Of a stretch of 64,000 bases of DNA, positions 3,286-59,590 are shown piece after piece (the first letter of the stretch is position 1; each line of letters starts with the position of its first letter). The notes beneath the pieces are model-generated. The model was not told the origin of the DNA. It was given only the letters and a program-made list of their open reading frames with translations, and did not search any database. Made by a program: the position numbers and the translations under genes. The DNA comes from an uncultured Gammaproteobacteria bacterium (GTDB taxonomy: Bacteria > Patescibacteriota > Microgenomatia > Levybacterales > JACOYD01), in the NCBI GenBank assembly GCA_964445095.1, contig CAYUJR010000002.1, positions 5,176 through 69,175 on the forward strand, written 5' to 3'.

Positions 3286-3900
3286 ATGGATAAAATAACT
3301 GCCCGTCAGGCAGAAGTTTTGAAACTGATTTATAAATCGATTTCCGATTCCGGTTACCCCCCGACTTTGGCCGAACTGCGTGAGTCTTTGGATGTTTCTT
3401 CCAATCAGGCAGTTTTGGATATTCTAAAAATTTTAGAAGATAAAGGTTATATACAGAAAGAGGAAGGAACAGCAAGAACCATTAGAATTTTAGATAAAGG
3501 CATTAAAGAATTGGGTTTAAAGCAAGTTGCTCCTGTTGCAGGTATCAGCGCAGCCGGCCCATATATGCAAGCCTATGAAATTAATGAATGGAAAGTTATA
3601 GACGATGTACAAGTAACCCCAAAAGACCGTCTGGTAAGAATTTCCGGGGATTCCATGATTGAGGCAGGCATTAATGATGGAGACATTGTCATAGTTCGTG
3701 AATCTAAAGAATTTAAAAACAGGGATATAGTTTTAGCCAGAAATAATGATGAAACAACAGTTAAAAGGTTTGTGCATGATGACGGTAAGGTTTACTTAAA
3801 ACCGGAAAACCCAAAATATAGAAATATTCCCATATATCCGGAGACTAGATTATTGGGTAAAGTTGTAGGTATACTTGGGAAAAGTAAAATTAATGACTAA
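3286..3900 (+). CDS. lexA: LexA-type transcriptional repressor (S24 peptidase)
   Basis: Canonical LexA winged-HTH N-domain (TARQAEVLKLI...YPPTLAEL...GYI). Ala-Gly cleavage site (AAGP), GDSM serine and VKRF lysine are present. The palindromic operator lies in its own promoter. Confidence 0.9.
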   Translation: MDKITARQAEVLKLIYKSISDSGYPPTLAELRESLDVSSNQAVLDILKILEDKGYIQKEEGTARTIRILDKGIKELGLKQVAPVAGISAAGPYMQAYEINEWKVIDDVQVTPKDRLVRISGDSMIEAGINDGDIVIVRESKEFKNRDIVLARNNDETTVKRFVHDDGKVYLKPENPKYRNIPIYPETRLLGKVVGILGKSKIND

Positions 3901-4717
3901 TGTTATGATACCGCAAATTATAAACAGAACAGGATTAGACCATCAGCCTAACAGAAATAATGCTAAAAAGCTTTTATATCCGGAAGATTTTATAAATAAA
4001 ATTATGTGTGGGGATGCTATCGAAATAATGAAACAAATCCCTAATCAAAAAGTAGACCTAGTTGTTACTTCGCCTCCTTATAATCTCAAAAATTCTACCG
4101 GTAACGGAATGAAAGACGGACGAGGTGGTAAATGGGCAAATGCTGCACTACAAAATGGATACACACATCACGACGATTGTATGCCCCATGATAAATATGT
4201 TAAATGGCAAAAAGAATGTTTGAATGAAATGATGAGAATAATTCCAGAAGATGGCGCAATTTTTTATAATCATAAATGGCGTGTTCAGGATGGCTTATTA
4301 CAAGATCGCCAAGATATCGTGGCTGGATTTCCTGTCAGGCAAATTATTATTTGGAAGAGAAAAGGAGGTCTTAATTTCAATTCCGGTTACTTCTTGCCTA
4401 CTTATGAAGTTATTTACCTTATAGCTAAACCGAAGTTTAAATTAGCGCCAAAAGCAAATGCTTATGGTGATGTTTGGGAATTTACCCAAGAAATGAAAAA
4501 TGAGCATCCCGCTGCTTTCCCTGTCAAATTAATTGATCGTATCATTTCTTCAACCAATGCAAAAATAATTCTTGATCCTTTTATGGGTTCAGGTACAACA
4601 GCTATTTCTGCGATTAATTTTAATAGAAAATATATAGGTATTGATATTTCACCGGAGTATTGTAAGATGGCACAGGAGCGAATTGAGCGCCACAATGCGC
4701 AAATAAAACTCCTGTAA
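3893..4717 (+). CDS. Beta-class N4-cytosine/N6-adenine DNA methyltransferase of a type II R-M system
   Basis: Motif IV TSPPY (VVTSPPYNL) precedes motif I DPFMGSGTT, which is beta-group order. SPPY is typical of N4C MTases. The ORF is open from TTG 3875; the start is placed at ATG 3893 and overlaps the lexA stop. Confidence 0.8.
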   Translation: MTNVMIPQIINRTGLDHQPNRNNAKKLLYPEDFINKIMCGDAIEIMKQIPNQKVDLVVTSPPYNLKNSTGNGMKDGRGGKWANAALQNGYTHHDDCMPHDKYVKWQKECLNEMMRIIPEDGAIFYNHKWRVQDGLLQDRQDIVAGFPVRQIIIWKRKGGLNFNSGYFLPTYEVIYLIAKPKFKLAPKANAYGDVWEFTQEMKNEHPAAFPVKLIDRIISSTNAKIILDPFMGSGTTAISAINFNRKYIGIDISPEYCKMAQERIERHNAQIKLL

Positions 4718-4721
4718 AACT

Positions 4722-5519
4722 ATGGCAAGTAAACCGATTATTTATACAAAACAAACGCTAATTGATAAACTTAAAGAAATTGTGGTTATGGGTTGGATTC
4801 CAAACGCCCGGCGAGGTAATTCTGGGGGTATAGGAAATACATTAGAAGATTTACTTGGTATTAAAGAAAATAATTTACCAATTCCAAACGCCGCTGAATG
4901 GGAGTTAAAAACTCAACGTATTAATTCTTCTTCATTAACGACCCTTTTTCATTCAGAGCCCTCACCTCGAGCTATTCGTTTTGTTCCACAAGTTTTGTTG
5001 CCAAAATATGGATGGGCTCATCAGGAAGATGGCAAGAAATATGCCAAAGGTGAGATGAGTTTTCGGCAAACAATTCATGGTCAATCAAGAAGTGATCGTG
5101 GTTTTATGGTTATTATTGATCGTTCAGAGAAAAAGATTTTAATTTCCTTTGATTCAAAAAGTGTGGCCATAAAGCATAAAGACTGGCTCGAATCAGTGAA
5201 AAAACGTGTTGGATTAAAAGAACTTGACCCCCAACCATATTGGGGGTTTGATGATTTAGAACATAAAGCCGGAACAAAATTACTTAATACCTTCTATGTT
5301 CAAGCTGAAGTGAAAGTTGAACGTAAAAAAGAATATTATAAATATACAAAAATTATGATGCTCCAAAAATTCAGTTTTGAAGGATTTTTGAAAGCATTGG
5401 AAGAAGGAAAAATTCTTGTAGATTTTGATGCTCGTACAGGACATAATCATGGAACAAAGTTTAGGATGAGACAGGATTGTTTACCAATACTTTATGAAAA
5501 AGTAACGGTGATTATTTAA
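4722..5519 (+). CDS. Type II restriction endonuclease partner of the MTase (size and context fit MvaI/BcnI-like enzymes)
   Basis: Starts 5 nt after the MTase stop. At 265 aa it matches the size of monomeric MvaI/BcnI-family REases that pair with N4C MTases. No motif strictly recognised; the call rests on context. Confidence 0.5.
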   Translation: MASKPIIYTKQTLIDKLKEIVVMGWIPNARRGNSGGIGNTLEDLLGIKENNLPIPNAAEWELKTQRINSSSLTTLFHSEPSPRAIRFVPQVLLPKYGWAHQEDGKKYAKGEMSFRQTIHGQSRSDRGFMVIIDRSEKKILISFDSKSVAIKHKDWLESVKKRVGLKELDPQPYWGFDDLEHKAGTKLLNTFYVQAEVKVERKKEYYKYTKIMMLQKFSFEGFLKALEEGKILVDFDARTGHNHGTKFRMRQDCLPILYEKVTVII

Positions 5520-8001: not shown

Positions 8002-8523
8002 ATGAATATTAAGAAATTGTTAATAGGTGGTGCGGCCGGGGCGATCATGTTTGCTGCGGTAGTCGCACCGGCTTTGGCAGCGGGTGGATTTGACCAGTTT
8101 GGCTATAACAGAACTGCCAGAAACTTTGTGGGTACCTGTTTAAGCTGGGGCATGGGTAAATATGGATGGACCCAGGCTCAAGCTCAAGCTTACTGCGGAG
8201 TTTACTCCAATGATAAACTGGTGATGAAATGGAATGCCGAGTGGGACCGGGGTAATGCCGAGGGTTGGGCAAACGGCCCGTATGATGCCTGGATTGATAA
8301 TGAGTGGAATGGCAGAAACAATGGGTCAGGGGAAATCTGGCATTATAAAATAGCCTGGGACAGGGGTTGCGCAGACTCCGGTACTCCTTCGGGAGCGGCT
8401 GTCAAAGGAGGGGCCTATTGTATTTGGGGGCCTTTTGCCATGCTGCAAAGCCAGGGGTCTGGTGCGGATAAAGTGCATTATTGGGATGTGCTGCTGGCGC
8501 CTGCCGGTTACGGAGCATATTAA
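8002..8523 (+). CDS. Secreted Trp/Gly-rich hypothetical protein (Sec signal peptide)
   Basis: Strong SD (GAGAGGAGGTGAGGAA) 6 nt before the ATG. Signal peptide with AxA site (APALAAGG). Higher GC than its neighbours. Three Cys. Confidence 0.6.
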   Translation: MNIKKLLIGGAAGAIMFAAVVAPALAAGGFDQFGYNRTARNFVGTCLSWGMGKYGWTQAQAQAYCGVYSNDKLVMKWNAEWDRGNAEGWANGPYDAWIDNEWNGRNNGSGEIWHYKIAWDRGCADSGTPSGAAVKGGAYCIWGPFAMLQSQGSGADKVHYWDVLLAPAGYGAY

Positions 8524-8572: not shown

Positions 8573-9709
8573 ATGTGGCAGAGCCTCAAAAACATCTATC
8601 ACTTGGCCATGGCGGTGGTGGCTAATTTGTGGTTTGGTTTTCCCTCAAAAAAGCTGACGGTCATTGGCGTGACCGGCACTGACGGTAAGACGACTACTGT
8701 TAACCTCATTTACCATATCTTAAAAACCGCCGGAAAACAGGTTTCGATGATTTCTTCGGTGGGGGCGGTTATTAATAGCAAAAATTATGAGACAGGTTTT
8801 CATGTGACCACTCCCTCTTCCTGGAAACTGCAAAAGTTTATCAAGAAAGCAGAAGGTTATTTAGTTCTCGAAGTTACTTCGCACGCTCTTGACCAGTACC
8901 GTGTTTGGGGCATAGATTTTGCAATTGGGGTACTGACTAATGTTACCAATGAACATCTTGATTACCACAAAACCTGGGAACAATATGTGAAAGTCAAATC
9001 AAAGTTGTTAAAAAACGCCAAGATAGCAATTGTTAATAAAGATGACAACTCCTACGGAGTAATTTCCAATTTCCAATTTCCAATTTCCAATAAATTAATT
9101 ACTTATGGATTAAAAAACTTTTCTTTTAAGACAAAATTGATGGGGGAGTTTAATAAATATAATATTTTGGCGGCGGCGGCGGCGGCAAAGACTTTAGGAA
9201 TAAAAGATCAAGTGATAAAAAAAGCAATAGCCAGTTTCCAATTACCGATTGGCAGGATGGAAGTTGTTTATAACGGCGCGTTTATGGTTATTATTGACTT
9301 TGCTCATACTCCAAACGCCCTAGAGCAAGCTTTATCGACAGTGAAAAAAAATGTTAGTGGTCGGTTAATTCATATTTTTGGTAGTGCTGGAGAAAGAGAT
9401 TTTCAGAAACGGCCGGAAATGGGAAGAGTTTCTAGCAAATACGCAGACATTATTATTTTGACTGCGGAGGATCCACGTTCGGAATCGGTTGATAAGATTA
9501 TCGAAGAGATTGAATCAGGAATTAAAAAGTCAGGAGTTTTGAGGGTTCAAAACAGGCAGGAGGCGATTAATACTGCTATTAAAATGGCCAAAAAAGGAGA
9601 TGTGGTGTTACTTACCGGTAAAGGGCACGAACAGTCGATGAATTATGGTCGGGGGGAGGAGCCGTGGAGTGAACATGAAGCAGTTAAACAAGCACTTAAA
9701 AAAAGTTAA
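8573..9709 (+). CDS. murE: UDP-MurNAc-L-Ala-D-Glu:meso-DAP/L-Lys ligase MurE (short form)
   Basis: GVTGTDGKTTT P-loop and DFAHTPNALEQAL (MurE DNAAHTPDAL-like) motifs. TATAAT at 8559-8564 sits only 8 nt before ATG 8573; the true start could instead be M at 8609. Confidence 0.85.
   Translation: MWQSLKNIYHLAMAVVANLWFGFPSKKLTVIGVTGTDGKTTTVNLIYHILKTAGKQVSMISSVGAVINSKNYETGFHVTTPSSWKLQKFIKKAEGYLVLEVTSHALDQYRVWGIDFAIGVLTNVTNEHLDYHKTWEQYVKVKSKLLKNAKIAIVNKDDNSYGVISNFQFPISNKLITYGLKNFSFKTKLMGEFNKYNILAAAAAAKTLGIKDQVIKKAIASFQLPIGRMEVVYNGAFMVIIDFAHTPNALEQALSTVKKNVSGRLIHIFGSAGERDFQKRPEMGRVSSKYADIIILTAEDPRSESVDKIIEEIESGIKKSGVLRVQNRQEAINTAIKMAKKGDVVLLTGKGHEQSMNYGRGEEPWSEHEAVKQALKKS
9062..9089 (+). repeat. (ATTTCCA)x4 heptanucleotide array, in-frame in murE
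   Basis: Four perfect units. With flanking bases it forms a 30-nt insert encoding ISNFQFPISN. Confidence 0.9.
9169..9186 (+). repeat. (GGC)6 trinucleotide repeat in murE (poly-Ala)
   Basis: GGCGGCGGCGGCGGCGGC encoding AAAAAA. Confidence 0.9.
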
Positions 9710-13481: not shown

Positions 13482-14708
13482 ATGCAGGCAATTTTACTAG
13501 CAGCTGGCAGTTCCAGTCGTTTTTATCCTTTTAACGGGACGCATAAATCAATGGTTTATCTTTTGGGCAAGCCGATACTAGCTCACGCAATTGATGGACT
13601 AAGAAGTATTGGCATAAAAGAGCTTATTATTGTAGTAAGAGATGATGGAATAGTTAAAGATTATTTTGGCGATGGTAAAAAATTTGGAGTAGAAATTAAT
13701 TATGTTGTCATAAATCAACCCTTGGGAATGGGTGATGCCCTACTTCAAGCTAAAAAACACCTTAAGGGTGATTTTATTTTTTTAGGGGGAAACCATGTTA
13801 ATAGTAACATTTTAGTTAGTAAATTATTGACTAACAGAAAAAATACTGATGCGGTAGTATTAATTAACCAAAGATTAAATACTTGGGAATATGGAGTTGT
13901 TAAGCTGGTAGGGCAGCAGGTTAAGGGAGTGGTGGAGAAGCCCAAGAAAGGTCAAGAACCGTCAAAATTTTGTTTAGTCAGTATCTATTTATTACCTATT
14001 AATTTTTTGGCGGTTTTAGAAAAAACTAAAGTGCATCAGTATAATTTTGAAGAGGCTTTGGATGAGTTTACCAAGATAGCAAAAGTCGCGGCAGTGGAGA
14101 TTAAAGAGGAGATAGCCACCTTAAAATACCCTTGGGATTTATTAAACGTTAAGAACATGCTGCTAAAAAAGATGAAAGACTATCGGGGAAAAAATGTCAA
14201 AATTGCCAAAAGCGCGGAAATTATTGGCGAAGTTTCTATTAGTGATGGTGTAGTAATTATGGAAGGAGTGCGTATTAAAGGTCCTGCTTATTTGGGAAAA
14301 AATGTGACAGTTGGTAATAATGCCTTGTTGCGTGGTGGAGTTGACGTGGAAGAGGGGTCGGTAGTTGGTTCTTATATGGAAGTTAAAAATAGTCTGGTAA
14401 TGAAAAATAGTACTACCCACTCCGGTTTTATTGGAGATTCAGTAGTTGGAGAAGCTTGCAAAATTGGCGCCCAATTTTGCACCGCTAATGTCAGAATTGA
14501 CAGAAAAACTATTCATGATAGTGGTCGTAAATTCTTAGGCGTAATTATGGGAAATAATGTTCATATCGGTATTAAATCATCCACCATGCCGGGAGTTATT
14601 ATTGGTAATAATGCTACCATTGGCCCCTCTACCACAGTTTTGCAAAACGTGTCTGATGATTCCCGTTACTACACCAAATTTGAAAAAATAGTGGAGGAGA
14701 AAAATTGA
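13482..14708 (+). CDS. GlmU-like bifunctional sugar-1-phosphate nucleotidyltransferase / left-handed beta-helix acyltransferase (archaeal-type)
   Basis: N-terminus LLAAGSSSRFYPF...K (NTP-transferase G-loop). C-terminal hexapeptide repeats. Lies between murA and glmS. Confidence 0.7.
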   Translation: MQAILLAAGSSSRFYPFNGTHKSMVYLLGKPILAHAIDGLRSIGIKELIIVVRDDGIVKDYFGDGKKFGVEINYVVINQPLGMGDALLQAKKHLKGDFIFLGGNHVNSNILVSKLLTNRKNTDAVVLINQRLNTWEYGVVKLVGQQVKGVVEKPKKGQEPSKFCLVSIYLLPINFLAVLEKTKVHQYNFEEALDEFTKIAKVAAVEIKEEIATLKYPWDLLNVKNMLLKKMKDYRGKNVKIAKSAEIIGEVSISDGVVIMEGVRIKGPAYLGKNVTVGNNALLRGGVDVEEGSVVGSYMEVKNSLVMKNSTTHSGFIGDSVVGEACKIGAQFCTANVRIDRKTIHDSGRKFLGVIMGNNVHIGIKSSTMPGVIIGNNATIGPSTTVLQNVSDDSRYYTKFEKIVEEKN

Positions 14709-15386: not shown

Positions 15387-17153
15387 ATGTGTGGAATATT
15401 CGGTTACGTAGGTAAAAAAAATGCCTCCGATGTTGTAATAGCCGGTTTAAAAAGACTGGAATACAGGGGTTATGATTCGTGGGGTATTGCCGTAGTAGCC
15501 GATGAAATAAAACTCAATAAAAAAGTGGGAGCGATCGGAGATATGCTTCCGTCATCCAACTTCCAACTTCCAGCCTCCAACATCGGTATTGGCCACACCC
15601 GCTGGGCTACTCATGGGGGAATCACCGAAACTAATGCTCACCCACATTTTTCCACTGATAAATCTTTTGCCCTAGCCCAAAATGGAATTGTGGAGAATTA
15701 TCAAGTATTAAAAGATGAACTTAAGGAAAGGGGTTACAAATTTTTTACAGAAACAGATACGGAGGTAATTGTCCGGTTAATAGAAGATAAATTGAAGCTA
15801 ATTAAAGACCTGCAGGAAGCTGTCAGAAAAGCTTTTTTGGAGCTTGAAGGTAGAAACACAATTATTATTTTGACTAAGGATGGTCAAATTATTTCTGCCA
15901 GAAATGGTTCTCCCTTGGTGGTTGGAGTTAATCAAAAAGAAGTATTTTTTTCATCCGATACTTTATCTTTTGCGCCATTCGTCAAAAAAGTAATAGTGAT
16001 AGATAATGGCCAGATGGTTTATTATAACGGTAAACTTAATGTAGTAGATATTAAGTCCGGCAAAAGTCTCCAATACCATCTTGAAAAGATCGATTTTAAA
16101 AACAGTAAGGTTGATAAAGAAGGCTACGACCATTTTATGTTAAAAGAAATTCATGAAAGTCCTTATGTGATTGGTCAAGTAATCAATCAAGCTCGTGGCT
16201 TAGACGCTCTTGGTAGAGCTATAAAGAAAGCTAAAACTGTCTACTGCGTCGCTATTGGCACAGCTGGTGGTGCTGCTTCCCAAATAGCCTTCTATTTAAG
16301 GGTTCATTCTGGGATTAAAGCCTTGAGTTTAACGGCAGCTAATGCTCTTGATTATTACCCTTTGTTTACCACAGACGATTTGATCATTAACCCCTCCCAA
16401 TCCGGAGAATCAGCTGATGTTTTGGAGGTTTTGGAAAAAGCTAAAGAAAAGGGAGTAAAAATCGCTTCTTATGTTAATATGCCGGGTTCAACTACGACCA
16501 GAATGTCAGATTTTAAGTTCATGTCTAATGCCGGACCGGAAATTTGCGTGATGTCCACAAAAGTTTATGCTTCTCAAATAGCCTGGGGGTATTTGCTGTC
16601 AAAAGTGGTAAGCAGAAAGCAGGAAGATGGACAGACAAACCTTAAGTCTTTATCTTTGGAGGTGGAAAAGTATTTAAATACCGAAAATAATCACGATTTG
16701 ATAAAAAACCTGGCAAAGGAGCTGGTTAAAAAACAGCACATTTTTCTTCTGGGTAAATACCAAAACTTAAATATAGCTCGCGAAGGTATGATTAAAATTA
16801 TCGAGGGTTCATACATTCATGCTCATGCTATGCCGGCAGGAGACTTAAAGCATTACGCCATTACTCTAATGGAAAAAGGGGTGCCAGTGATTGTAGTAGT
16901 TTCTGAAGATATAGCAAGAGATGATGTGATAAACGCCGTAAATGAGGTCAGAGCCAGAGGGGCTTGGGTAATAGGCATTGCGCCCAAATCACACCCGAGT
17001 TTTGATGTCCATCTACCAGTGCCTAATACAGGGGAAACATCAGCCATCATGAATATAATCCCTTTACAGCTTTTAGCTTATTATATGGCAGTAGAACTGG
17101 GTCACAATGTAGACAAACCCAGAAATATTGCTAAGAGTGTAACAGTCAAATGA
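15387..17153 (+). CDS. glmS: Glutamine--fructose-6-phosphate aminotransferase GlmS
   Basis: MCGIFGYVG Ntn-amidotransferase start with two SIS domains; 588 aa. Three heptamer units precede the ATG. An internal (TCCAACT)-type 4-unit array lies at 15555-15582. Confidence 0.92.
   Translation: MCGIFGYVGKKNASDVVIAGLKRLEYRGYDSWGIAVVADEIKLNKKVGAIGDMLPSSNFQLPASNIGIGHTRWATHGGITETNAHPHFSTDKSFALAQNGIVENYQVLKDELKERGYKFFTETDTEVIVRLIEDKLKLIKDLQEAVRKAFLELEGRNTIIILTKDGQIISARNGSPLVVGVNQKEVFFSSDTLSFAPFVKKVIVIDNGQMVYYNGKLNVVDIKSGKSLQYHLEKIDFKNSKVDKEGYDHFMLKEIHESPYVIGQVINQARGLDALGRAIKKAKTVYCVAIGTAGGAASQIAFYLRVHSGIKALSLTAANALDYYPLFTTDDLIINPSQSGESADVLEVLEKAKEKGVKIASYVNMPGSTTTRMSDFKFMSNAGPEICVMSTKVYASQIAWGYLLSKVVSRKQEDGQTNLKSLSLEVEKYLNTENNHDLIKNLAKELVKKQHIFLLGKYQNLNIAREGMIKIIEGSYIHAHAMPAGDLKHYAITLMEKGVPVIVVVSEDIARDDVINAVNEVRARGAWVIGIAPKSHPSFDVHLPVPNTGETSAIMNIIPLQLLAYYMAVELGHNVDKPRNIAKSVTVK
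15555..15582 (+). repeat. TCCAACT-TCCAACT-TCCAGCC-TCCAACA heptamer array, in-frame in glmS
   Basis: Encodes SSNFQLPASN, close to the murE insert peptide ISNFQFPISN. Confidence 0.9.
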
Positions 17154-17860
17154 AAAATATTCTTATTCTGCATGGTTGGGAATTGCGCGGCAGTGTTTAT
17201 AATCAGTTAAAAAAACTTCTGGAGAAAGAGGGTTTTACAGTTTTTGTTCCTGATTTGCCGGGGTTTGGTGAACGGCCATTGTCAAAACCGGTTTTAACTC
17301 TTGCCGATTATGTTAATTTCGTGAAAGATTTTATTAAAAAAAATATCAAACAAGATCTGGTTATTATTGGTCATTCTTTTGGGGCGCGGGTGGCGATTGT
17401 GCTAGCTTCACAAAACCCAGAAAATTTAAAAAAATTGGTATTAACCGGAGCGCCGGGAATTCGCCGACCCCTGCCTCTTCGTTCAAAAATTGCTTTTTTT
17501 CTGGCTAAAACTGCTAGTGGAATCTTTACTGTACCGCCATTCTCTTTTCTCCAAGGTTTTTTTCGAAAATTATTGTATAAATTTACCGGAGAATTTGATT
17601 ATTATAAAGCCGGAAACTTAAGAGAAACTTTTAAGAATATAATTGCTCACGAGCTGACAGATCATTTAGCAAAAATTAAAATACCAACATTACTGGTATG
17701 GGGAGAACAGGACTTGATTGTACCTGTTTCTGATGGTCAGGCAATGCGAGAGTTTATATCCAATGCCAAATTAATAGTTATTAGAACAGCCAATCATAAA
17801 TTGCCCTATCTTCAGCCGGATATTTTTGTCAAAACAATTTTACCCTTTCTCATAAAATGA
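17150..17860 (+). CDS. Alpha/beta-fold hydrolase
   Basis: GHSFGARVA (GxSxG nucleophile elbow). 236 aa. 4-nt overlaps with both neighbours. Confidence 0.7.
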   Translation: MKNILILHGWELRGSVYNQLKKLLEKEGFTVFVPDLPGFGERPLSKPVLTLADYVNFVKDFIKKNIKQDLVIIGHSFGARVAIVLASQNPENLKKLVLTGAPGIRRPLPLRSKIAFFLAKTASGIFTVPPFSFLQGFFRKLLYKFTGEFDYYKAGNLRETFKNIIAHELTDHLAKIKIPTLLVWGEQDLIVPVSDGQAMREFISNAKLIVIRTANHKLPYLQPDIFVKTILPFLIK

Positions 17861-19425
17861 TAGACAAAATTTTTTCAAACATTGTTATTATTGCTTTTAC
17901 AATTCGCACAATTCGCAGTGCTCTATTGCTGGTCGGGCTATGGCAAGTAAAAGAGTATCGTTTTGATAGATTGTGGATTCATTTGCGAGAAACACAAGTC
18001 GGCAGGGAATTTCTCTTTAGTAAAATATCAAACCTCAAATGGCTGCTCGTTATTCTTTATCCTCTAACTTATGCGATGCAATTTCCTGATTGGTTTTTTC
18101 CCTTGCTGGTGGTAGCTATTTATGGTTGGGAAATAATAACTACAAGGCAAATTAAACGTCCAGTTTTAACCGCTAAATCAGTCGTTTTAGTTGGGTTAAC
18201 TCTGTTTATGGCTTTTGTTTTTCTTAACCTACCGCTCTTTGAGATCTTTTTTTGGGTGTTGATACTGGATAAAAGCTTACCTTTGATAGTAGCTATAGTA
18301 GTCTTTTTGCTATCGTTTCCGACGGAAATCTGGCGAGATAGGATAATTCTGCAGGCAGAAGAATTACTGCGCCAGCGCAAAAAATTAACTGTTATTGGTG
18401 TTACCGGTAGTTTTGGCAAAAGTTCCACCAAGGAGTTTGTAGCTCAAGTTTTAAGTGAAAAATTTAAAGTCCTAAAAACTCCCGGTTCACAAAATACTCC
18501 AATTGGTATTGCCAAAACAATCATTAAAGGACTAAGAAAAGATACACAGGTTTTAGTAGTAGAAATAGGAGCTTATAAAATTGGAGAAATAGAAGAAGTT
18601 TGCCAAATTATCAAACCCTCGATAGGTATTTTAACAGGTATTAGCGCGCAGCACCTGTCTCTTTTTGGCAGTATAGATAATATTATTCAGGCTAAGTACG
18701 AACTGATAAAATCTTTACCAAAAAACGGCTTGGCAGTTTTTAACAGTAATAATTTATATTGTCGGGAGCTTTATCAAAAAACAAAAATTAATAAATTAAG
18801 ATATGGTTTTAGTCAGGAAAGTGATGTTAAAGTTAAAGACTGGAAAGTTAACCCGCAAGATTTGAGATTTACTTTTCAGATTGGCCGGACTCGGCAGTCG
18901 GTAAAAATTAATTTACTGGGACGCCATAACGTCGAAAATCTGCTGCCGGCGATTCTGGTGGCTCATCATTTAGGCATGACGCTAATACAAATAAAAAAAG
19001 CTCTGGAAAAAATTTCTTATCTGCCCCTGACCATGCAACCGATTAAGTTTATGAACGCCATGTTTATTGATGACACTTTTAATGCCAGCCCCGAAGGAGT
19101 CAATGCCGCCTTTGACTATCTAAAAGTTTTCAAAAAAAGAAGAAAAATTCTTATTCTTACTTCCCTGATTGAATTGGGAAAAGAAGCGGATAAAGTTCAT
19201 GAGAACTTAGGCCGAGAAGCCGGCAATATTTTTGATATCGTATATCTAACTAATAATAATTTTGCTCAAAGTTTTGCCGATGGCCTAAAAAGAGGAAAAA
19301 AAACAACTAATTTCCGAATTGCCAGAAGTAAAGAAATTAAGGAGATGCTTCTGGGAAATATAGAGAAGGGCGATGTAGTGCTTTTTGAAGGAAAAGAGGC
19401 GGGGACAGTTCTAAAATTACTATGA
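17857..19425 (+). CDS. murF: UDP-MurNAc-tripeptide--D-Ala-D-Ala ligase MurF with an unusual N-terminal polytopic membrane extension
   Basis: VIGVTGSFGKSSTKE P-loop and IDDTFNASPEGV (MurF IDDSYNANP) motifs. The first ~170 residues are hydrophobic with several predicted TM helices, replacing the usual short MurF N-domain. Confidence 0.8.
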   Translation: MIDKIFSNIVIIAFTIRTIRSALLLVGLWQVKEYRFDRLWIHLRETQVGREFLFSKISNLKWLLVILYPLTYAMQFPDWFFPLLVVAIYGWEIITTRQIKRPVLTAKSVVLVGLTLFMAFVFLNLPLFEIFFWVLILDKSLPLIVAIVVFLLSFPTEIWRDRIILQAEELLRQRKKLTVIGVTGSFGKSSTKEFVAQVLSEKFKVLKTPGSQNTPIGIAKTIIKGLRKDTQVLVVEIGAYKIGEIEEVCQIIKPSIGILTGISAQHLSLFGSIDNIIQAKYELIKSLPKNGLAVFNSNNLYCRELYQKTKINKLRYGFSQESDVKVKDWKVNPQDLRFTFQIGRTRQSVKINLLGRHNVENLLPAILVAHHLGMTLIQIKKALEKISYLPLTMQPIKFMNAMFIDDTFNASPEGVNAAFDYLKVFKKRRKILILTSLIELGKEADKVHENLGREAGNIFDIVYLTNNNFAQSFADGLKRGKKTTNFRIARSKEIKEMLLGNIEKGDVVLFEGKEAGTVLKLL

Positions 19426-20645
19426 TTGCTATTTCACTTTCTCCAAATACGCAAAAAAAGGATTATATGACAGCTCTTGCTCAGCTTTTCTCTCCCTGGT
19501 CTTATATCCATGGGCAATACGTCAAGAAAGTTGAGCAATGGTTTCAAAAATATTTTAATGCTCGTTTTGCCATTAGTTTTGACAGCGGCCGCTCGGCCCA
19601 ATACGCTATTCTCTCGGCGTTAGGGATAGGAAAAGGGGACGAGGTGTTAATTCAGGCTTTTACTTGCGTGGCAGTACCTAATTCTGTGTTGTGGACCGGA
19701 GCAAAACCCATTTTTGTTGATATAGAAAAAAATTCTTATAATATGTCGCTAGGGGATCTGGTAAAAAAGATTAACAAAAATAGTAAGGCCATAATTGTCC
19801 AGCATACTTTTGGTCAGGCGGCCAAAATTAGTGAAATTTGTCAAATTGCCAAAAAACACAAATTAGTATTAATCGAGGACTGCGCTCACGCGCTGGGCGC
19901 CAGCGTTAATAGTCAAAAACTAGGAACATTTGGAGAGGCGGCCTTTTTTAGTTTCGGACGCGATAAAGTGGTGTCTAGCGTTTTTGGAGGAATGGTTGTT
20001 ACCAGGGATAAGAGGATAGAGGAAAGGGTTAAGGAGTTTCAAAAAAATCTCGCGTATCCCTCAATTTTTTTGATAGTTCAGCAACTGCTTCATCCGATAT
20101 TTTTCTCCATGATTCTGCCAACTTATAATTTTTTTAATCTTGGTAAAGTTATTTTGAAAGTTAGTCAGGCGCTCCACTTATTAGGTAAACCAGTGATAGA
20201 AATGGAAAAGAAGGGACAGAGGCCCAGGTTTTATCCCCGAAAACTGCCTAATAGTTTGGCCAGACTAGCTCTAGTTCAGTTAGGGCGACTGGAAAGTTTT
20301 AATAAAAAAAGAAAGGTAATAGCCGCTGTATATGCCAAAGAGCTTAGTATCAAGATAAAAGACCAAGATATTCATGTCCGTTTTCCGCTTTTGGTTAATC
20401 GTCGAGACGAGTTATTAAAATCGGCCAAGAGTAGGGGAATTCTGCTGGGTGACTGGTATTCTCACGTGGTCGACCCCAAAGGTGTAGATTTGACAAAAAT
20501 CGGTTATGCTTTCGGTAGCTGTCCGATGGCAGAACAATCAGCAACCAAAATTGTTAATCTGCCAACCTATCCCAGGATGTCGGTTAATGATGCCCAAAAA
20601 GTTGTACGAATTGTCAAAAACTATGTTAATAATAAAAACAGTTGA
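19422..20645 (+). CDS. DegT/DnrJ/EryC1/StrS-family PLP-dependent sugar aminotransferase
   Basis: ...FDSGRSAQYAILSALGIGKGDEV...AFTCVAVPNSV... and a conserved SFGRDK lysine region. Confidence 0.8.
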   Translation: MIAISLSPNTQKKDYMTALAQLFSPWSYIHGQYVKKVEQWFQKYFNARFAISFDSGRSAQYAILSALGIGKGDEVLIQAFTCVAVPNSVLWTGAKPIFVDIEKNSYNMSLGDLVKKINKNSKAIIVQHTFGQAAKISEICQIAKKHKLVLIEDCAHALGASVNSQKLGTFGEAAFFSFGRDKVVSSVFGGMVVTRDKRIEERVKEFQKNLAYPSIFLIVQQLLHPIFFSMILPTYNFFNLGKVILKVSQALHLLGKPVIEMEKKGQRPRFYPRKLPNSLARLALVQLGRLESFNKKRKVIAAVYAKELSIKIKDQDIHVRFPLLVNRRDELLKSAKSRGILLGDWYSHVVDPKGVDLTKIGYAFGSCPMAEQSATKIVNLPTYPRMSVNDAQKVVRIVKNYVNNKNS

Positions 20646-21639
20646 TAATAAAGACAATTGGGAAAAATTTTTGCTTGCTCAACCCTATCAGCCTTTTTTC
20701 CAGAGTTGGAGTTGGGGAGAAATACAGGAAGGGTTAAGGAATCGTGTTTTGAGACTTGGTGTTTATGACCCTTCAACAAGTTCAGGGCTGGTGGGTATTT
20801 GTCAGATCGTCGAAGTTAGGGCTAAACGCGGTAATTACTTTCACCTGCGGCATGGTCCGCTATTGACAAATTTTAAGAAACAATTCCCCTTGTTAATAGC
20901 TGAAATTATTAAGATAGCCCGCGCCGCCAAGATGGACTTTATTCGGATGTCACCATTATTGACCGAAGACTTTGAGATTAAGTTTTTACAAAAACGGGGG
21001 CTTCGTAATTCTCCAATTCATAATATGGATGCGGAAAATGCTTGGGTTTTGGAACTTAACATTAGTGAAGAAGAATTATTAAAGCAGATGAGGAAGACCA
21101 CTCGTTACTTAATTAAAAAAGGGGAGCGGTCAGGTTTAGAGATTACCCCAGCCAAGTCAACGGATGATACTAAAACTTTTCTTAAACTTTATCAAAAGAC
21201 TGCTCAAAAACACGGCTTTGTCCCCCACGGGGGGATTGGGGAAGAAATTGAAGTGTTTAAAAAGGATGGGCAGGCAGAATTGTTTTTGGCGCGGTACAAA
21301 AAAAAGATAATTTCTGGGGCATTGGTGATATTTTATGGTAATTCGGCCATTTACCATCATGGGGCGACAGACCCAAAGTACGAATATCTCTCCCCTTCTT
21401 ATTTACTGCAATGGGAAGCGATCAAAGAAGCTAAAAAAAGAGGAAAGAAAATCTATAATTTTTGGGGAGTGGTTCCCCCATCAAAACCTCACCATCCCTG
21501 GCAGGGTTTGACTCTTTTTAAAACCGGCTTCGGCGGCCGTCGCGTCAACTTCATCCACGCCCAAGACCTGCCGTTAACGCCTTGGTATTGGAAAACATAT
21601 ATAATTGAGACTATAATGAGGATTAGGAAAGGATATTGA
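20623..21639 (+). CDS. FemAB-family peptidyltransferase (peptidoglycan cross-bridge formation, FemX-like)
   Basis: FemAB-like length and composition, e.g. YHHGATDPKYEYLSPSYLLQWEAIKEAKKRGKKIYNFWGV. The ORF is open from 20506; start placed at ATG 20623 to avoid a long overlap. Confidence 0.6.
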   Translation: MLIIKTVDNKDNWEKFLLAQPYQPFFQSWSWGEIQEGLRNRVLRLGVYDPSTSSGLVGICQIVEVRAKRGNYFHLRHGPLLTNFKKQFPLLIAEIIKIARAAKMDFIRMSPLLTEDFEIKFLQKRGLRNSPIHNMDAENAWVLELNISEEELLKQMRKTTRYLIKKGERSGLEITPAKSTDDTKTFLKLYQKTAQKHGFVPHGGIGEEIEVFKKDGQAELFLARYKKKIISGALVIFYGNSAIYHHGATDPKYEYLSPSYLLQWEAIKEAKKRGKKIYNFWGVVPPSKPHHPWQGLTLFKTGFGGRRVNFIHAQDLPLTPWYWKTYIIETIMRIRKGY

Positions 21640-22260
21640 GTGGAAGTTGCATCGGCTGTAGCAAGAGTTGCACGAAGAACTGTTGAGGGTCGTACTCACG
21701 CCCCAGATGTGATTAGTTGGATTGAGACAAATCCGGTCGAACTTCAAAATCTACTTGATAATTTTGATAAGGTTATTAATAGATTTAATAGTATAAATTT
21801 AGGAGAACCTCCAGTTAGTTTAATTAATGCCATAATAGTCAAAGGAGAGCTTAGTCAAGATCAATTACCAACTTTTAATACAATAATTTCACAATCTCAA
21901 TCAGCTTTCTCCAAAGGATTTCGTTCTTTTGTTAATACACTGAAAGATATGAATAAAATGATGGAAAGAGGCGAAACTACGCAAGCCGAACCGTTTCTTG
22001 CTTTCCATAAGACCGAAACAGATACTCCGGCTTTAGTTATAGGTGGCATTTTCCATACATATGAAGAAATGTTGATGCGTGATCCAAAATTTTCCGGGCG
22101 ATTCAAATGGGGACAATTAGTAGATGCACTTGTTGAAACACTAGCCGAAGATAAAACAAATCCTCTTTATGATGCGGTGGCAAATAAAAGTAGACTGGAT
22201 TGGATTGATGGATGGGAAGGATTTTCGGAGCAATTTCGTAAAGAAAATGGATTTAATTAA
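21640..22260 (+). CDS. Hypothetical protein
   Basis: 206-aa ORF with a GTG start after an AGGAAAGGA SD. No recognisable motif. Confidence 0.45.
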   Translation: MEVASAVARVARRTVEGRTHAPDVISWIETNPVELQNLLDNFDKVINRFNSINLGEPPVSLINAIIVKGELSQDQLPTFNTIISQSQSAFSKGFRSFVNTLKDMNKMMERGETTQAEPFLAFHKTETDTPALVIGGIFHTYEEMLMRDPKFSGRFKWGQLVDALVETLAEDKTNPLYDAVANKSRLDWIDGWEGFSEQFRKENGFN

Positions 22261-22267
22261 ATGAAAA

Positions 22268-22597
22268 ATGAGTAAATTTGTTAAAATTGTTGTTTATGTG
22301 CCAGAAAGTCATGCCGATATTATCAGACAAGCTATGGGAAATGCCGGAGCCGGAGTAATTGGCAATTATAGTCACTGCACTTTTTCTATTAAAGGCAAGG
22401 GGAATTATAAACCCCTAGAAGGAGCGAAACCATTTATTGGAGAAGTAGGAAAATTTGAAGAGGTGGAGGAAGAAAGAATAGAAACAGTTTGTCCTCAAAA
22501 AAAAGTTAAAGAGGTAATAGAAGCTATTAAAGAAGTCCATCCGTATGATGAAGTAGCCCTAGATATTTATTCGTTGCTAAGTAAAAAAGATTTATGA
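22268..22597 (+). CDS. Small PII/CutA-like protein related to the insert domain of Nif3 (YqfO)-family proteins
   Basis: 109 aa. The C-terminal EVHPYDEVALDIYSL resembles the HPYEEPAYD signature. Pattern recalled from memory. Confidence 0.35.
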   Translation: MSKFVKIVVYVPESHADIIRQAMGNAGAGVIGNYSHCTFSIKGKGNYKPLEGAKPFIGEVGKFEEVEEERIETVCPQKKVKEVIEAIKEVHPYDEVALDIYSLLSKKDL

Positions 22598-23106
22598 AGA
22601 CGATTTTGTATATGGCTATAACTGCTAATGGGTTTATTGCCAGAACTGATGGTAACACAGATTGGACGTCAGAGGAGACTTGGAATGAGAGCTATTTCAA
22701 GCTCTTAAAAAGAACTGGAAATTTAATTATTGGCCATAATACATATGACATTATGCCGCCAAAAGAATTTTTACCAGAAGTTTTGTATATAGTTCTTACC
22801 AAAGGTAAGCCTCTCAAGAAAAAAGTCCCTAATGTTATTTTTACGAATCAAACTGCAAAAGAAGTTCTAAAAATGCTTAGCGACAAGGGTTTTGAAGAGA
22901 TATGTATAGGAGGTGGCAGTATAATAAATTCCTCTTTCATCAAAGAAAATTTAATAGATGAGATAATTCTAGATGTTGAGCCAATTGTTTTTGGGAAAGG
23001 GATCCAGCTTTTTGCCCCGGAAGACTTTGAATATAAATTAAAACTGCTGTCAGTTAAAAACTTAAACAAAAACACAGTTCAATTACATTATAAGGTTTTG
23101 AAGTAA
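22594..23106 (+). CDS. Dihydrofolate-reductase-family protein (RibD C-terminal-domain-like)
   Basis: MKTILYMAITANGFIARTDGNTDW start and 170 aa length are typical of the RibD_C/DHFR-like family. Confidence 0.6.
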   Translation: MKTILYMAITANGFIARTDGNTDWTSEETWNESYFKLLKRTGNLIIGHNTYDIMPPKEFLPEVLYIVLTKGKPLKKKVPNVIFTNQTAKEVLKMLSDKGFEEICIGGGSIINSSFIKENLIDEIILDVEPIVFGKGIQLFAPEDFEYKLKLLSVKNLNKNTVQLHYKVLK

Positions 23107-23161: not shown

Positions 23162-24169
23162 ATGCAGTTGTTGGGTTTAATTATACTTTCTACCTTTATC
23201 ACCGGTCTACTGCTTGTTCCTTTTATTGACTTTCTCTATAAGATGAAGTTCCAGCGGCAAAAGCAGAAGACACGGGATGTTTTTAATAGACATACTCCCA
23301 TTTTTGATAAATTTCATGCCTGGAAAGCCGGTACGCCTTTTGGCGGAGGAGTATTAATTTTAGCAGTAGTGACAGTTTTGACTCTGTGGGCCTACGGCAT
23401 TTTTGAGATTAACATCAAAGGCTGGGAGCTATTTGTTCTGCTTTTTTCTTTTCTGTCCTTTGGGGCGTTGGGATTTTACGATGACCTAAAAAAAATGATT
23501 AATGGCAAAAAGTCAGATTTTTTTGGATTGCGTTTTCGTTATAAATTTTTCATCCAATGGGTGCTGGCCTTTATTATCGGCACTATTTTTTATACTCAAC
23601 TCGGCTACGACTTTTTCTTCATCCGTTTTTTAGGCGAATTTAATATTGGAATTTTATACATTCCTTTGGCGGCTTTTATTATTGTTTCTTTTACCAATGC
23701 CTTTAATATTACAGATGGTTTGGATGGCTTGGCCGGCGGACTTTTCCTCATTTGCATGATTGCTTTCCTGGTTATTTCAGCCGGTTTATTAAATCAGTGG
23801 CTGGGAATTTTTATTGCCATACTAATTGGTTCAGTCATCGCCTTTTTATACTTTAATATTTTTCCGGCCCGGCTGTGGTTGGGAGACGTTGGCTCAATGT
23901 CTCTGGGGGCAATGCTGGCGGTAGTTGGACTTTTAACGGGAAAAATTACCGCTTTGGCTATTATCGGCGGCGTTTTTGTAATAGAAGTAGCTTCTTCTCT
24001 TTTTCAGATTTTGGCAAAGAGATTTTTAGGTAAAAAAATTCTGCCTGTCACCCCCTTTCATCTCTTTTTACAAAACCAGGGATGGGAAGAGCCCAAAATT
24101 GTGATGCGACTATGGCTGCTGGGAGTTCTTTTTGCCGTAGTAGGGCTCTTTATCGCCGGTATTAAGTAA
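23162..24169 (+). CDS. mraY: Phospho-N-acetylmuramoyl-pentapeptide transferase MraY
   Basis: NAFNITDGLDGLAGG signature and polytopic membrane topology. Confidence 0.92.
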   Translation: MQLLGLIILSTFITGLLLVPFIDFLYKMKFQRQKQKTRDVFNRHTPIFDKFHAWKAGTPFGGGVLILAVVTVLTLWAYGIFEINIKGWELFVLLFSFLSFGALGFYDDLKKMINGKKSDFFGLRFRYKFFIQWVLAFIIGTIFYTQLGYDFFFIRFLGEFNIGILYIPLAAFIIVSFTNAFNITDGLDGLAGGLFLICMIAFLVISAGLLNQWLGIFIAILIGSVIAFLYFNIFPARLWLGDVGSMSLGAMLAVVGLLTGKITALAIIGGVFVIEVASSLFQILAKRFLGKKILPVTPFHLFLQNQGWEEPKIVMRLWLLGVLFAVVGLFIAGIK

Positions 24170-49595: not shown

Positions 49596-50780
49596 TCATT
49601 TTAACTCAAAAGGTACTCTCACCATAGAATGAGGATTATCCCATATTCCTCGAGAGTAGACCAAAACTCCAGTTCTATCCGTAATTTGATCTGTAGGTTT
49701 ATTTAAAGACCAAAGGCTCGGATTACTGGCCCATAACTGACCTCTTTTATGAGGATATTGCCCTTGAGGAAATTTTAAGATAAGCTTAGCCTCGTCCCAG
49801 GTTAAACCATCGTTTGAAGTAGTTACGCAAAATCCAACATGCGTTTCAAAAACAGCCAGGTATTTACCTAAATAGGTATTATAGCTTACACTAGGGAGTG
49901 CGGCATACCCACTCTCCGCTATATCGGCTGGTATAGGAATAACTGGTGATACAGTAGTGGGGGAAACTTCAACTCCTTTTTGAAAACCATTTTTTGTATA
50001 ATGTTCGAAGGCTCCAACATTATCCCCTTTTACCTCTGTTCTAGAAAGGTGAATTTGATATTCTCGCCCTTCATGAGAAGGCCAATAAATATAATAAACA
50101 TAGACAAATCGCTTATCCCCTTCCTCTTTAATAATCGCACAAGGTTGACCTACTCCAGTAACATTTTTTCCAGGTTGTAATGCATCAGCTGCTTTTAAAG
50201 CAACTCCTTTATCCAACCAATTTTTTCCTCCATCAACTGATTCTAAAATACCAATAGTACTCGTGAAGTTACGATAATCTAAAGAACCATCTCTATTTGC
50301 CCATTGTTCATTGTGGGTTATCCCAAAAAGATGATTAGGATTTTCCTTGTTTAACTGAAGGATGCTTGTAATTGCAGTATATCCATTTCTATATTCCCCC
50401 CCCCTATCAGGGCCAACCACAGGTATGGCTTGTCCTTGCTGGTTACGTTCTCTTGGTATAAATAGACTTCCTTTATCTTCTAGCATGGCGAACGAAGCTG
50501 CATTTCCAGAAACATAATATTCCCGCCTTCCATCGGGAAAAGTTATATAAGGAATATGGCCGTCGGGAGTCCAGTTGATACCATATTTTGACAGCTGAAT
50601 TGGTTCCTCTTTACCAAGCATCATCAAATCATTTTCCGGAGTTTCAAATCCTCCTCTGGTTGACCGTTCATTAACAAGCAGTGCGCCTCGTCCTAGAGCA
50701 ACAGCTCCCAATCCAATCGCTCCCCATTTAATTGCAGTTCGTCGAGTTATTTGAAGTCGTTTAGGTGTATCTTCTGCCAT
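49596..50780 (-). CDS. Tat-signal exported protein, beta-propeller/glycosidase-like (function unknown)
   Basis: ITRRTAIKWGAIGLGAVALG Tat-type leader. Rich in W/Y/G, as in propeller folds. Confidence 0.45.
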   Translation of the reverse strand: MAEDTPKRLQITRRTAIKWGAIGLGAVALGRGALLVNERSTRGGFETPENDLMMLGKEEPIQLSKYGINWTPDGHIPYITFPDGRREYYVSGNAASFAMLEDKGSLFIPRERNQQGQAIPVVGPDRGGEYRNGYTAITSILQLNKENPNHLFGITHNEQWANRDGSLDYRNFTSTIGILESVDGGKNWLDKGVALKAADALQPGKNVTGVGQPCAIIKEEGDKRFVYVYYIYWPSHEGREYQIHLSRTEVKGDNVGAFEHYTKNGFQKGVEVSPTTVSPVIPIPADIAESGYAALPSVSYNTYLGKYLAVFETHVGFCVTTSNDGLTWDEAKLILKFPQGQYPHKRGQLWASNPSLWSLNKPTDQITDRTGVLVYSRGIWDNPHSMVRVPFELK

Positions 50781-53700: not shown

Positions 53701-53793
53701 GCCAGGCGAATAATTTACCCAACAAATAATAACAGTAAGAATAAATAATGCTAAAGGAAAAATATTTCTTTTAAATATTGGAGATATTCGCAT
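50761..53793 (-). CDS. Large (1010 aa) polytopic membrane protein with huge extracytoplasmic domain; GT-C-like (YfhO/AftD-like) candidate
   Basis: About 12 N-terminal TM helices, then roughly 550 aa soluble, then a C-terminal TM. Carries three heptamer-array inserts (50866-50893, 50973-51000, 51846-51877). Confidence 0.5.
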   Translation of the reverse strand: MRISPIFKRNIFPLALFILTVIICWVNYSPGTYLSGWDTLHPEFDFGLYFKRIFFGVWQEHQGLGAVASQAHASELPRMFIYYLSSLILPDSFLRYGYFFLTLIAGTLGTYFFLERVILKNLPRIAGQTAAFSGALLYLLNLATLQHYYVPLEMFATHFATLPWLFLFTSKYLENGTSRNLIFFSLITILSTSMAHTATLFYAYFLGLLLYISTLAFFSFKETIRRALLILLTTLVLNSFWLLPNIYFVASHGKDVVDSKIHTQFSEKAFLTGRQFGTIKDTAILKNFLFDWGEYDDKKQESISLFDEWTPHLNSPIANFIAYGIFTLVLRGIAIVFRRQEKYGLAILPVFIVSFLFIANDLPLFREIFAFLQNEVPFFREALRFPFTKFSILLLFAYTVYFAVALNWLTGLLIKRVKKERILYLLQALTILIALVYYMWPAFKGNLISHSMKVQIPKEYFAMFNWLNKQETTGRIAEFPVHTFWGWAYYDWQYEGAGFLWFGLKQPLLDREFDRWSPYNENYYWEASYAVYSKNPALLENVLEKYQIRWLLVDENIINPPSSKALYLDELEETLKNSNKVTLTQQFGSPAQAGKIKVYRVNLEAPVNNFVFLAENLATTGPIYKWNNYDRAFNDNGYYLASSIQSPASSFYYPFRSLFTGRSQQDLEFTVEDRGDYFAFSKTLPAGSDNYVLEVPPPSSQILTWVDPNDLSQTKTVPLDVFFDGKNIEVKVPKAGGYFSAEIEPTTVNCDNVVRGFLRLTLINNSNCTAFNLPNLTHDMAYLITAETKNISGRPILFWLENPNSRRADIETYLPASSSKHLASSYFIQPPMEKDGVGYVLHFDNVSIGKEKSTNELGKITVNPIPYKFLTGLVLKKSSTNQFPVRLTELEVNHPNPSLYSITIEQFNNLTINNPVLVLSQSYDTGWKAYQCQMSNVKCQILPMVFGREIKNHVLVNNWANGWVLNNSSFQPPASSLVILYLPQYLEYLGFLLLIISAIMYLIKYGRRYT
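50866..50893. repeat. (GCTGGAR)x4 heptamer array inside the 1010-aa membrane-protein gene
   Basis: The minus-strand reading TTCCAGC TTCCAGC CTCCAGC TTCCAGC encodes SSFQPPASSL. Same family as the glmS array. Confidence 0.9.
50973..51000. repeat. (TTTGACA)x4 heptamer array inside the same gene
   Basis: The minus-strand reading (TGTCAAA)4 encodes QCQMSNVKCQ. It is one transition away from the GT2 ATATCAA unit. Confidence 0.9.
51846..51877. repeat. Degenerate heptamer array (CTGGAAG CTGGAGA TTGGATG CTAGAAG) inside the same gene
   Basis: The minus strand encodes ...SSIQSPASSF... Confidence 0.6.
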
Positions 53794-53801
53794 ATTGTAA
53801 G

Positions 53802-54716: not shown

Positions 54717-54733
54717 AGACGAAGTATAGCATA

Positions 54734-56308: not shown

Positions 56309-56424
56309 ACAAAAAATATATCATACTATAAGTCTTTCGTCAAGAAGCGATAGGGGAGTTATGCAAACAACCCCGTTTAAAATTTAAAACGGGGTTGCTG
56401 TACTACGATATTTTGGGCAGCGGG

Positions 56425-59557: not shown

Positions 59558-59590
59558 TTACTTAAACCTATAGTATACTTATTTACAAAT

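Follow-up and report, generated by a model that had tools for sequence, protein, structure and literature searches.

The 64,000-nucleotide stretch of DNA analysed here (the window; contig CAYUJR010000002.1 of assembly GCA_964445095.1, labelled as an uncultured Gammaproteobacteria bacterium and placed by GTDB in the Patescibacteriota, order Levybacterales) carries a cell-wall gene whose product joins a five-helix integral membrane domain to the catalytic core of a MurF-type ligase. In this protein, which we call TM-MurF (for transmembrane (TM) MurF), the membrane domain stands in the place of the canonical N-terminal domain of MurF, and the same architecture recurs in many related genomes. We propose, with a probability of roughly 0.6 and on evidence drawn from sequence, that TM-MurF is the Patescibacteria-type MurF and would carry out the MurF reaction on the cytoplasmic side of the membrane. 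In the textbook pathway, MurA to MurF are soluble cytoplasmic enzymes, and MraY performs the first membrane step of peptidoglycan synthesis.

A single reading frame for membrane domain and ligase

The TM-MurF gene (17857-19425, forward strand) is complete, with an ATG start, 522 codons and a stop in one uninterrupted open reading frame (ORF). Its 5′ end shares a 4-nucleotide ATGA overlap with the stop, at 17860, of an ORF for an alpha/beta-hydrolase, and its 3′ end overlaps by 4 nucleotides the start, at 19422, of an ORF for a DegT-like enzyme. An earlier reading of the window, made from its letters without database searches (the sequence-only reading), had described MurF fused to a polytopic membrane domain, with the preceding gene ending at 17860 in a 4-nucleotide overlap. 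The overlap is there in the sequence, and the single ORF indeed encodes both a polytopic membrane domain and a MurF-type ligase, as no frameshift, stop or separate small membrane gene was found within 17857-19425. The exact 522-residue product is also on record from a 92,728-bp NCBI contig. More than 120 close homologues (40-63% identity, mostly 520-555 residues long) span 96-100% of the ORF, with start sites at the same position, give or take a few residues, and the N-terminal extension is conserved, as the sequence-only reading had asked to be checked.

These observations bear on the possibility that the fusion is an annotation artefact, in which the hydrophobic part would be an untranslated leader or a separate small membrane protein, and MurF would be translated from M74 or M118 (the latter, an internal methionine that had been placed at 18207, lies at 18208-18210). 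A near-identical GenBank protein (P0001; MBI1919256.1) is annotated in just this way, as 449 residues starting at M74, but the contig behind it, from a near-identical organism, is 3,445 bp long, whereas the 522-residue product comes from the far longer contig cited above. Residues 1-73 hold the most conserved motif of the TM domain, with W29, Q30, Y34, R38 and H42 invariant in 62 homologues, and a protein begun at M74 or M118 would retain two to three orphan TM helices. Short database proteins that match the TM domain proved to be contig-end fragments or frameshifted calls, not stand-alone genes. Because the extension is kept in hundreds of homologues, translation from an internal start is very unlikely; conservation of residues 1-73, together with the lack of stops, rules out an internal start or a split gene, and with the close agreement of homologue start sites the artefact is scarcely credible. 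An antisense ORF (18120-18431) was without support, and scans for promoters, terminators, Rfam families and tRNAs around the gene returned nothing relevant.

A MurF-type core without the canonical N-terminal domain

The ligase part comprises the Mur ligase central (ATP-binding) domain (18400-18963, forward strand; residues 182-369; Pfam PF08245, 147 bits, E = 7.9e-43) and the Mur ligase C-terminal domain (19042-19395, forward strand; residues 396-513; PF02875, 45.7 bits, E = 1.5e-11), the former including the P-loop GVTGSFGKSS (18397-18426, forward strand; residues 181-190) and the latter containing the motif IDDTFNASP. Both motifs quoted in the sequence-only reading are present, the P-loop stretch VIGVTGSFGKSSTKE at residues 179-193 and IDDTFNASPEGV at residues 404-415. 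The P-loop, the metal-binding Glu and His residues and the Mur_ligase_C domain are those of the Mur ligase superfamily, and six residues of the core (G184, S185, K188, E236, H266 and E282) are invariant, with G187 conserved at 96% and K280 at 90% or more. When aligned with Acinetobacter baumannii MurF, IDDTFNASP corresponds to IDDTYNANP and AKYE (containing K280) to AKSE, that is, to the MurF-type motif and the conserved Lys.

Comparison with subfamily models and solved structures pointed the same way. Among NCBIfam models, MurF was the best subfamily (TIGR01143, 264 bits, versus 99 for MurE, 92 for MurC and 88 for MurD), with the match covering profile positions 67-405 of 418 (339 positions) and leaving positions 1-66 unmatched. 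Solved MurF structures made up the top ten Foldseek matches and the top seven sequence matches in the PDB. These structure alignments (~370 columns, 24-28% identity) start at query residue ~170-176, equivalent to residue 93 of Escherichia coli MurF (1gg4), residue 115 of A. baumannii MurF and residue 81 of Thermotoga maritima MurF; residues 1-~90 of 1gg4, which make up its N-terminal domain 1, are left unaligned, and the model of TM-MurF shows residues 1-172 as wholly helical and embedded in the membrane. The canonical MurF N-terminal domain is absent, not diverged, and the membrane domain sits in exactly that place. Of the earlier picture of a MurF with a membrane extension, the fusion stands and the notion of an anchor added to a complete MurF falls, as the membrane domain replaces domain 1. 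The motif, profile and structure matches show a MurF-type ligase core whose predicted catalytic residues are intact.

The window contains no second MurF-type ligase, its other Mur ligases being MurC, MurD and MurE only, and TM-MurF is the sole MurF-like ORF in the window's mur cluster, as it is in each of the 80 related loci described below.

A conserved five-helix membrane domain

The N-terminal integral membrane domain (17857-18321, forward strand; residues 1-155) consists of five TM helices and two short amphipathic helices, in the order TM1 (~5-28), amphipathic helices (36-45 and 47-54), TM2 (56-73), TM3 (80-95), TM4 (106-123) and TM5 (130-~153). An AlphaFold2 (AF2) model built from a 62-sequence alignment (mean predicted local distance difference test score 94, predicted template modelling score 0.88) places helices at residues 2-31, 36-45, 47-54, 56-73, 80-95, 106-123 and 130-172, the last of which is one continuous helix according to DSSP. 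In the five long helices, mean Kyte-Doolittle hydropathy averaged over 72 homologues is 1.6-2.4. The hydrophobic N-terminus noted in the sequence-only reading is thus resolved by AF2 and by family-averaged hydropathy into five membrane-length helices. Beyond TM5, a basic linker helix (18322-18384, forward strand; residues ~156-176; A167 99% conserved, 6.7 Lys plus Arg per sequence) extends TM5 to the first strand of the ligase core. The distribution of positive charge is strongly uneven, with 6.1, 4.4 and 6.7 Lys plus Arg per sequence in segments 29-57, 96-107 and 154-178, respectively, and 0.3-0.5 in the other three. Together, the model and the charges indicate a predicted topology with the N-terminus outside, the C-terminus inside and the ligase in the cytoplasm, in which the positive-inside rule is obeyed.

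Two cytoplasmic loops of this domain are strongly conserved. The first holds the motif WQVKEYRFDR (17941-17970, forward strand; residues 29-38; family consensus WQ[LVT]KEYR[FL]DR followed by xxxH), and the second, between TM3 and TM4, holds KRPVLTAK (18154-18177, forward strand; residues 100-107). Because WQxKEYRxDR served as the pattern by which the 80 loci were found, its 100% conservation among them is circular; conservation was also assessed in 62 homologues that had not been picked by the motif, in which W29, Q30, Y34, R38, H42, G49, P102, T105 and P155 are invariant. The second-loop motif (P102 100%, T105 96% and K107 86% across 72 sequences) provides independent evidence, because it lies outside the search pattern. 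Relative to the query, median identity is 27% in the N-terminal domain and 40% in the ligase core, the N-terminal domain evolving faster. The strong conservation of these two basic, membrane-proximal loops suggests that the domain has a specific function and is more than a passive anchor.

Residues 1-170 had no Pfam match, and residues 1-175 corresponded to no Pfam-A 2025 family and to no solved fold. When the N-terminal 175 residues were searched with phmmer against 1.84 billion representatives, 163 cluster representatives were recovered, almost all of which carry the domain at the N-terminus of proteins of 490-570 residues. Neither phmmer nor a profile search revealed other domain partners, the TM domain being found solely before Mur_ligase_M; two proteins (P0415, and P0416, which has PF03706) were disregarded as marginal matches covering 12-17% of the query.

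Distribution among Patescibacteria and Anaerolineae

Scanning one genome per GTDB species with the motif WQ[LVT]KEYR[FL]D yielded 86 confirmed relatives, for 80 of which the loci were fetched (L001-L080). Nearly all of these loci have an ORF of 510-590 residues with the same layout, save those cut by a contig end. Lineages were taken from record titles, several of which (for example, 'uncultured Gammaproteobacteria') are evidently unreliable placeholders; titles that name Saccharibacteria are likewise not to be relied on. By these labels, the loci span the Microgenomates (Levyibacteriota, Microgenomates, Woesebacteria, Gottesmanbacteria and Blackburnbacteria) and the Parcubacteria (Spechtbacteria, Staskawiczbacteria, Magasanikbacteria, Kerfeldbacteria and Pacebacteria), together with Peregrinibacteria, Dojkabacteria and four metagenome-assembled genomes of Anaerolineae or Anaerolineales. 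Far from being the oddity of one genome, TM-MurF is the standard form across the many lineages of Patescibacteria that were sampled and is also found in some Anaerolineae.

The Anaerolineae loci (L028, L029, L044 and L064) have a G+C content of 55-64%, versus a median of 38% for all loci, which rules out contamination by, or misbinning of, Candidate Phyla Radiation (CPR) sequences as their source. The sharing of this architecture between Chloroflexota and Patescibacteria could reflect either common ancestry or gene transfer.

Gene neighbourhood

TM-MurF lies within a cassette of four genes on the forward strand (17150-21639), which is kept even away from other genes of the division and cell wall (dcw) cluster. 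Upstream is the alpha/beta-hydrolase gene (17150-17860; Pfam Abhydrolase_1 and Abhydrolase_6), the immediate neighbour in 60 of 75 loci, 20 of which share the -4-nucleotide overlap. Downstream follows a gene for a DegT/DnrJ/EryC1-family pyridoxal phosphate-dependent enzyme (19422-20645; PF01041, 234 bits), the immediate neighbour in 55 of 66 loci, and next to it, as in most loci, a FemAB-family gene (20506-21639; Pfam FemAB, 117.6 bits), for which an internal Met near 20623 is the probable start. In 7 of the 66 loci, the cassette partners are missing and TM-MurF is followed immediately by mraY, which is the classical murF-mraY order. The sequence-only reading had set MurF next to MraY; in the window, mraY (23162-24169, forward strand; Pfam Glycos_transf_4) lies 3.7 kb downstream, and TM-MurF is instead embedded in the conserved cassette. 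Most Patescibacteria loci have this translationally coupled set of four genes.

Two ORFs show cassette members joined in one frame. In an Anaerolineae locus (L028; JBHIDP010000269.1, 10-3231), TM-MurF and the DegT-like enzyme are fused in frame in a 1,073-residue ORF. Separately, a 738-residue metagenomic protein from the Joint Genome Institute (P0013) contains the hydrolase and TM-MurF in one ORF. Where the two meet, both the C-terminal end of the hydrolase and TM1 are cut short; the protein may be a true fusion, or it may result from a frameshift or a faulty assembly.

The wider gene order of the window, which is a Patescibacteria-style cell-wall and division cluster, runs from genes for PBP2, murE, murC, murB, murA, an archaeal-type glmU-like gene, a HAD gene and glmS, through the hydrolase, TM-murF, DegT-like and FemAB-like genes and three small ORFs, to mraY, murI, murD, ftsW, murG, ftsA and ftsZ, with ileS and rodA further downstream. 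The three small ORFs (21640-23106, forward strand) encode a 206-residue protein without a family match, a 109-residue protein with a weak P-II-like match below the cut-off and a 170-residue RibD_C/DHFR-like protein. TM-MurF has the genomic position of murF in the dcw/mur cluster of the window, and it is the single MurF-like copy there and in each of the 80 loci.

Comparison with known Mur ligases

Canonical MurF enzymes (for example, E. coli 1GG4, A. baumannii 4QF5 and T. maritima 3ZL8) share with TM-MurF the central and C-terminal domains at 24-28% identity, the P-loop, the Mg-binding Glu and His, the conserved Lys (K280), the DDxxNAxP motif and the murF slot in dcw-type clusters. They differ in having their own soluble N-terminal domain of ~80-110 residues, in place of which TM-MurF has a 155-residue five-TM domain and a linker helix. 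Natural fusions of Mur ligases are also known, and the models for three of them, MurE-MurF (NF008896; PDB 8F5D), MurF-alanine racemase (NF008897) and MurC-Ddl (NF011171), all match the TM-MurF core. As in those proteins, a Mur ligase is covalently joined to a partner, there a pathway enzyme, presumably to localise or channel intermediates; they are, however, soluble enzymes that keep the N-terminal domain, whereas the partner in TM-MurF is a membrane domain that replaces it.

Two relatives that do without a nucleotide-binding domain offer closer parallels in that respect. Poly-gamma-glutamate synthase (PgsB/CapB) is a Mur-ligase-like, ATP-dependent amide ligase that lacks a UDP-binding domain and is tethered to the membrane in a complex; it has a single N-terminal anchor and polymerises glutamate. 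TM-MurF has in common with it the missing UDP-binding domain and the membrane tether, but its core is clearly MurF-type, and no PgsB model was among the 25 NCBIfam families listed of the 27 that it matched. The second relative, MurT of the MurT/GatD lipid II amidotransferase, is soluble and pairs with GatD; it is described as having a Cys-rich insert and a C-terminal domain of the DUF1727 type. It belongs, like TM-MurF, to the Mur ligase superfamily and likewise has no structured uridine-binding N-terminal domain, acting on lipid II and lipid I rather than on UDP-linked precursors (PMC6085368). Foldseek matches to TM-MurF include MurT structures (7q8e and 6gs2), and the MurT models NF045635 and NF052464 score 33.5 and 26.9 bits, respectively, against cut-offs of 800. 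With no GatD or glutamine amidotransferase gene beside TM-MurF in the cassette, TM-MurF is, as judged from these matches, not a member of the MurT family.

Homologues of TM-MurF are named in databases as MurF or 'Mur ligase family protein'. In a search of the literature that was not exhaustive, we found no published description of a transmembrane MurF in Patescibacteria/CPR or elsewhere, and a paper on dcw-cluster evolution explicitly left out the CPR.

Proposed function and alternatives

We propose that TM-MurF works at the membrane surface, where it would attach the terminal dipeptide (D-Ala-D-Ala or an equivalent) to the N-acetylmuramic acid (MurNAc)-tripeptide precursor. The rigid helix that runs from TM5 into the ligase core would give the enzyme a permanent seat at the cytoplasmic face of the membrane, and its product would then arise where MraY uses it, allowing local delivery. 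Membrane-localised synthesis of the MraY substrate is a plausible hypothesis. The basic loops, WQxKEYRxDRxxxH and (K/R)RPxxTxK, may take over the job of the lost domain 1, either by binding the diphosphate-sugar handle or by docking a membrane partner such as MraY. What is observed directly is the architecture, its conservation, the MurF-type core and the synteny; the substrate, the role of the loops and any channelling to MraY are inferred.

Several observations weigh against TM-MurF being simply a membrane-seated MurF. The TIGR01143 score of 264 bits falls below the curated cut-off of 288.6, a shortfall that may arise because profile positions 1-66 are unmatched and that is roughly what the missing N-terminal domain would be expected to add. 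In canonical Mur ligases, the N-terminal domain binds the uridine of UDP-linked substrates (PMC6085368), and because this domain is absent, use of a UDP-linked substrate by TM-MurF is not to be presumed. The single-copy result covers the window and the 80 loci, so that a second, canonical MurF elsewhere in these genomes is possible. A search with an approximate E. coli DdlB query, which makes for a weak test, found no Ddl-like ORF in the 64-kb window or in the 80 loci (~1.1 Mb); ddl is often located elsewhere in the genome. Finally, the tight linkage to the hydrolase, DegT-like and FemAB-like genes and the fusion to the DegT-like enzyme could mean a role beyond that of plain MurF. TM-MurF therefore departs from canonical MurF in two respects, the N-terminal domain and the curated score, and appears from its sequence to be most like MurF in its working.

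Two other readings were considered. The substrate might be lipid-linked: once MraY has acted, the enzyme would attach the dipeptide to a MurNAc-tripeptide carried on undecaprenyl-diphosphate (a tripeptide form of lipid I or lipid II). Polyprenyl-diphosphate would then be bound by the TM domain and its basic loops, the uridine-binding domain having been swapped as the handle changed. The exchange is exact, domain 1 being lost and the membrane domain standing at the same position; the superfamily offers a precedent in MurT (PMC6085368); and invariant Arg, Lys and His residues sit in the membrane-proximal cytoplasmic loops. The state of MurE is in keeping with this reading. The window MurE (8573-9709, forward strand; 378 residues) has its P-loop at residue ~33, no PF01225 match and MurE profiles that align only from about position 95, so that it lacks the canonical N-terminal domain, whereas the window MurC and MurD match their own models from position 1 and keep their N-terminal regions. 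As a rule, its 120 best homologues (Levybacteria and Microgenomates, 364-488 residues) share this short form, which was also seen in 6 of 7 Patescibacteria loci. The short MurE has no membrane domain, however, so that a lipid substrate does not follow from the absence of domain 1 alone. The cassette also includes a FemAB protein, of a family that often acts on lipid II. On the other side, MraY would need to accept a truncated nucleotide precursor, and the ligase core is otherwise that of an ordinary MurF. We consider a lipid-linked substrate unlikely and, as a more general proposal, find it somewhat less likely still that in Patescibacteria and some Anaerolineae late stem-peptide assembly by MurF, and perhaps MurE, has moved to the membrane, onto undecaprenyl-diphosphate-linked MurNAc, with the five-TM domain binding the lipid carrier.

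Alternatively, TM-MurF might be a paralogue that serves as the ligase of a four-enzyme module for some other membrane-associated peptide-sugar structure, or that adds something other than D-Ala-D-Ala, with MurF activity supplied from elsewhere. The strong conservation of the cassette, even where no other dcw genes are nearby, would fit such a module, as would the 4-nucleotide overlaps among the hydrolase, TM-MurF and DegT-like genes in the window, the ligase fusions in L028 (with the DegT-like enzyme) and P0013 (with the hydrolase), and the TIGR01143 score under the cut-off. Yet the seven loci that lack the cassette partners and place the gene directly before mraY still keep the TM domain, TM-MurF is the sole MurF-like gene in otherwise complete mur clusters in the window and the loci, and both its score per matched position and its retained C-terminal motif are those of a true MurF. 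A separate role of this kind seems to us decidedly improbable, and a Patescibacteria-type MurF working at the membrane surface is the reading that we favour.

Other features of the window

The GlmU-like gene (13482-14708, forward strand) scores 282 bits with the archaeal-type model TIGR03992 (cut-off 292), a model for bifunctional sugar-1-phosphate nucleotidylyltransferase/acetyltransferase, versus 94 bits with bacterial GlmU. Just upstream of murE, at 8002-8523 on the forward strand, is a gene for a 173-residue, W/G/N-rich protein with a signal-peptide-like N-terminus and no Pfam or NCBIfam match. At 3286-5519 on the forward strand, a gene for a LexA-like repressor precedes a restriction-modification pair, consisting of an N6/N4 DNA methylase and an MvaI/BcnI-family restriction endonuclease, in the interval between the PBP2 gene and the mur cluster. 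On the reverse strand, a run of ORFs at 49596-57420 includes a 1,010-residue ORF (50761-53793) and three ORFs without a Pfam match (49596-50780, 53802-54716 and 56425-57420), and adjoins genes for a PMT_2-like glycosyltransferase (54734-56308) and a sortase (58762-59823).

Implications

An entire superphylum seems to rely on a MurF that is integral to the membrane and lacks the domain by which the nucleotide handle of the substrate is normally gripped. At the least, TM-MurF would be a hard-wired version of the membrane-associated Mur enzyme complexes that have been proposed, and it adds an uncharacterised membrane domain with invariant charged motifs, a clade-specific trait of an essential enzyme in organisms that are difficult both to grow in culture and to target. 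At the most, the late cytoplasmic steps may differ in these bacteria in their order or their substrates: were completion of the stem peptide on a lipid-linked precursor to prove true, the textbook order would be altered in a large share of bacterial diversity, where MraY would act ahead of MurF. The architecture and cassette shared by Patescibacteria and Anaerolineae also provide a potential character for the debated relationship between the CPR and the Chloroflexota.

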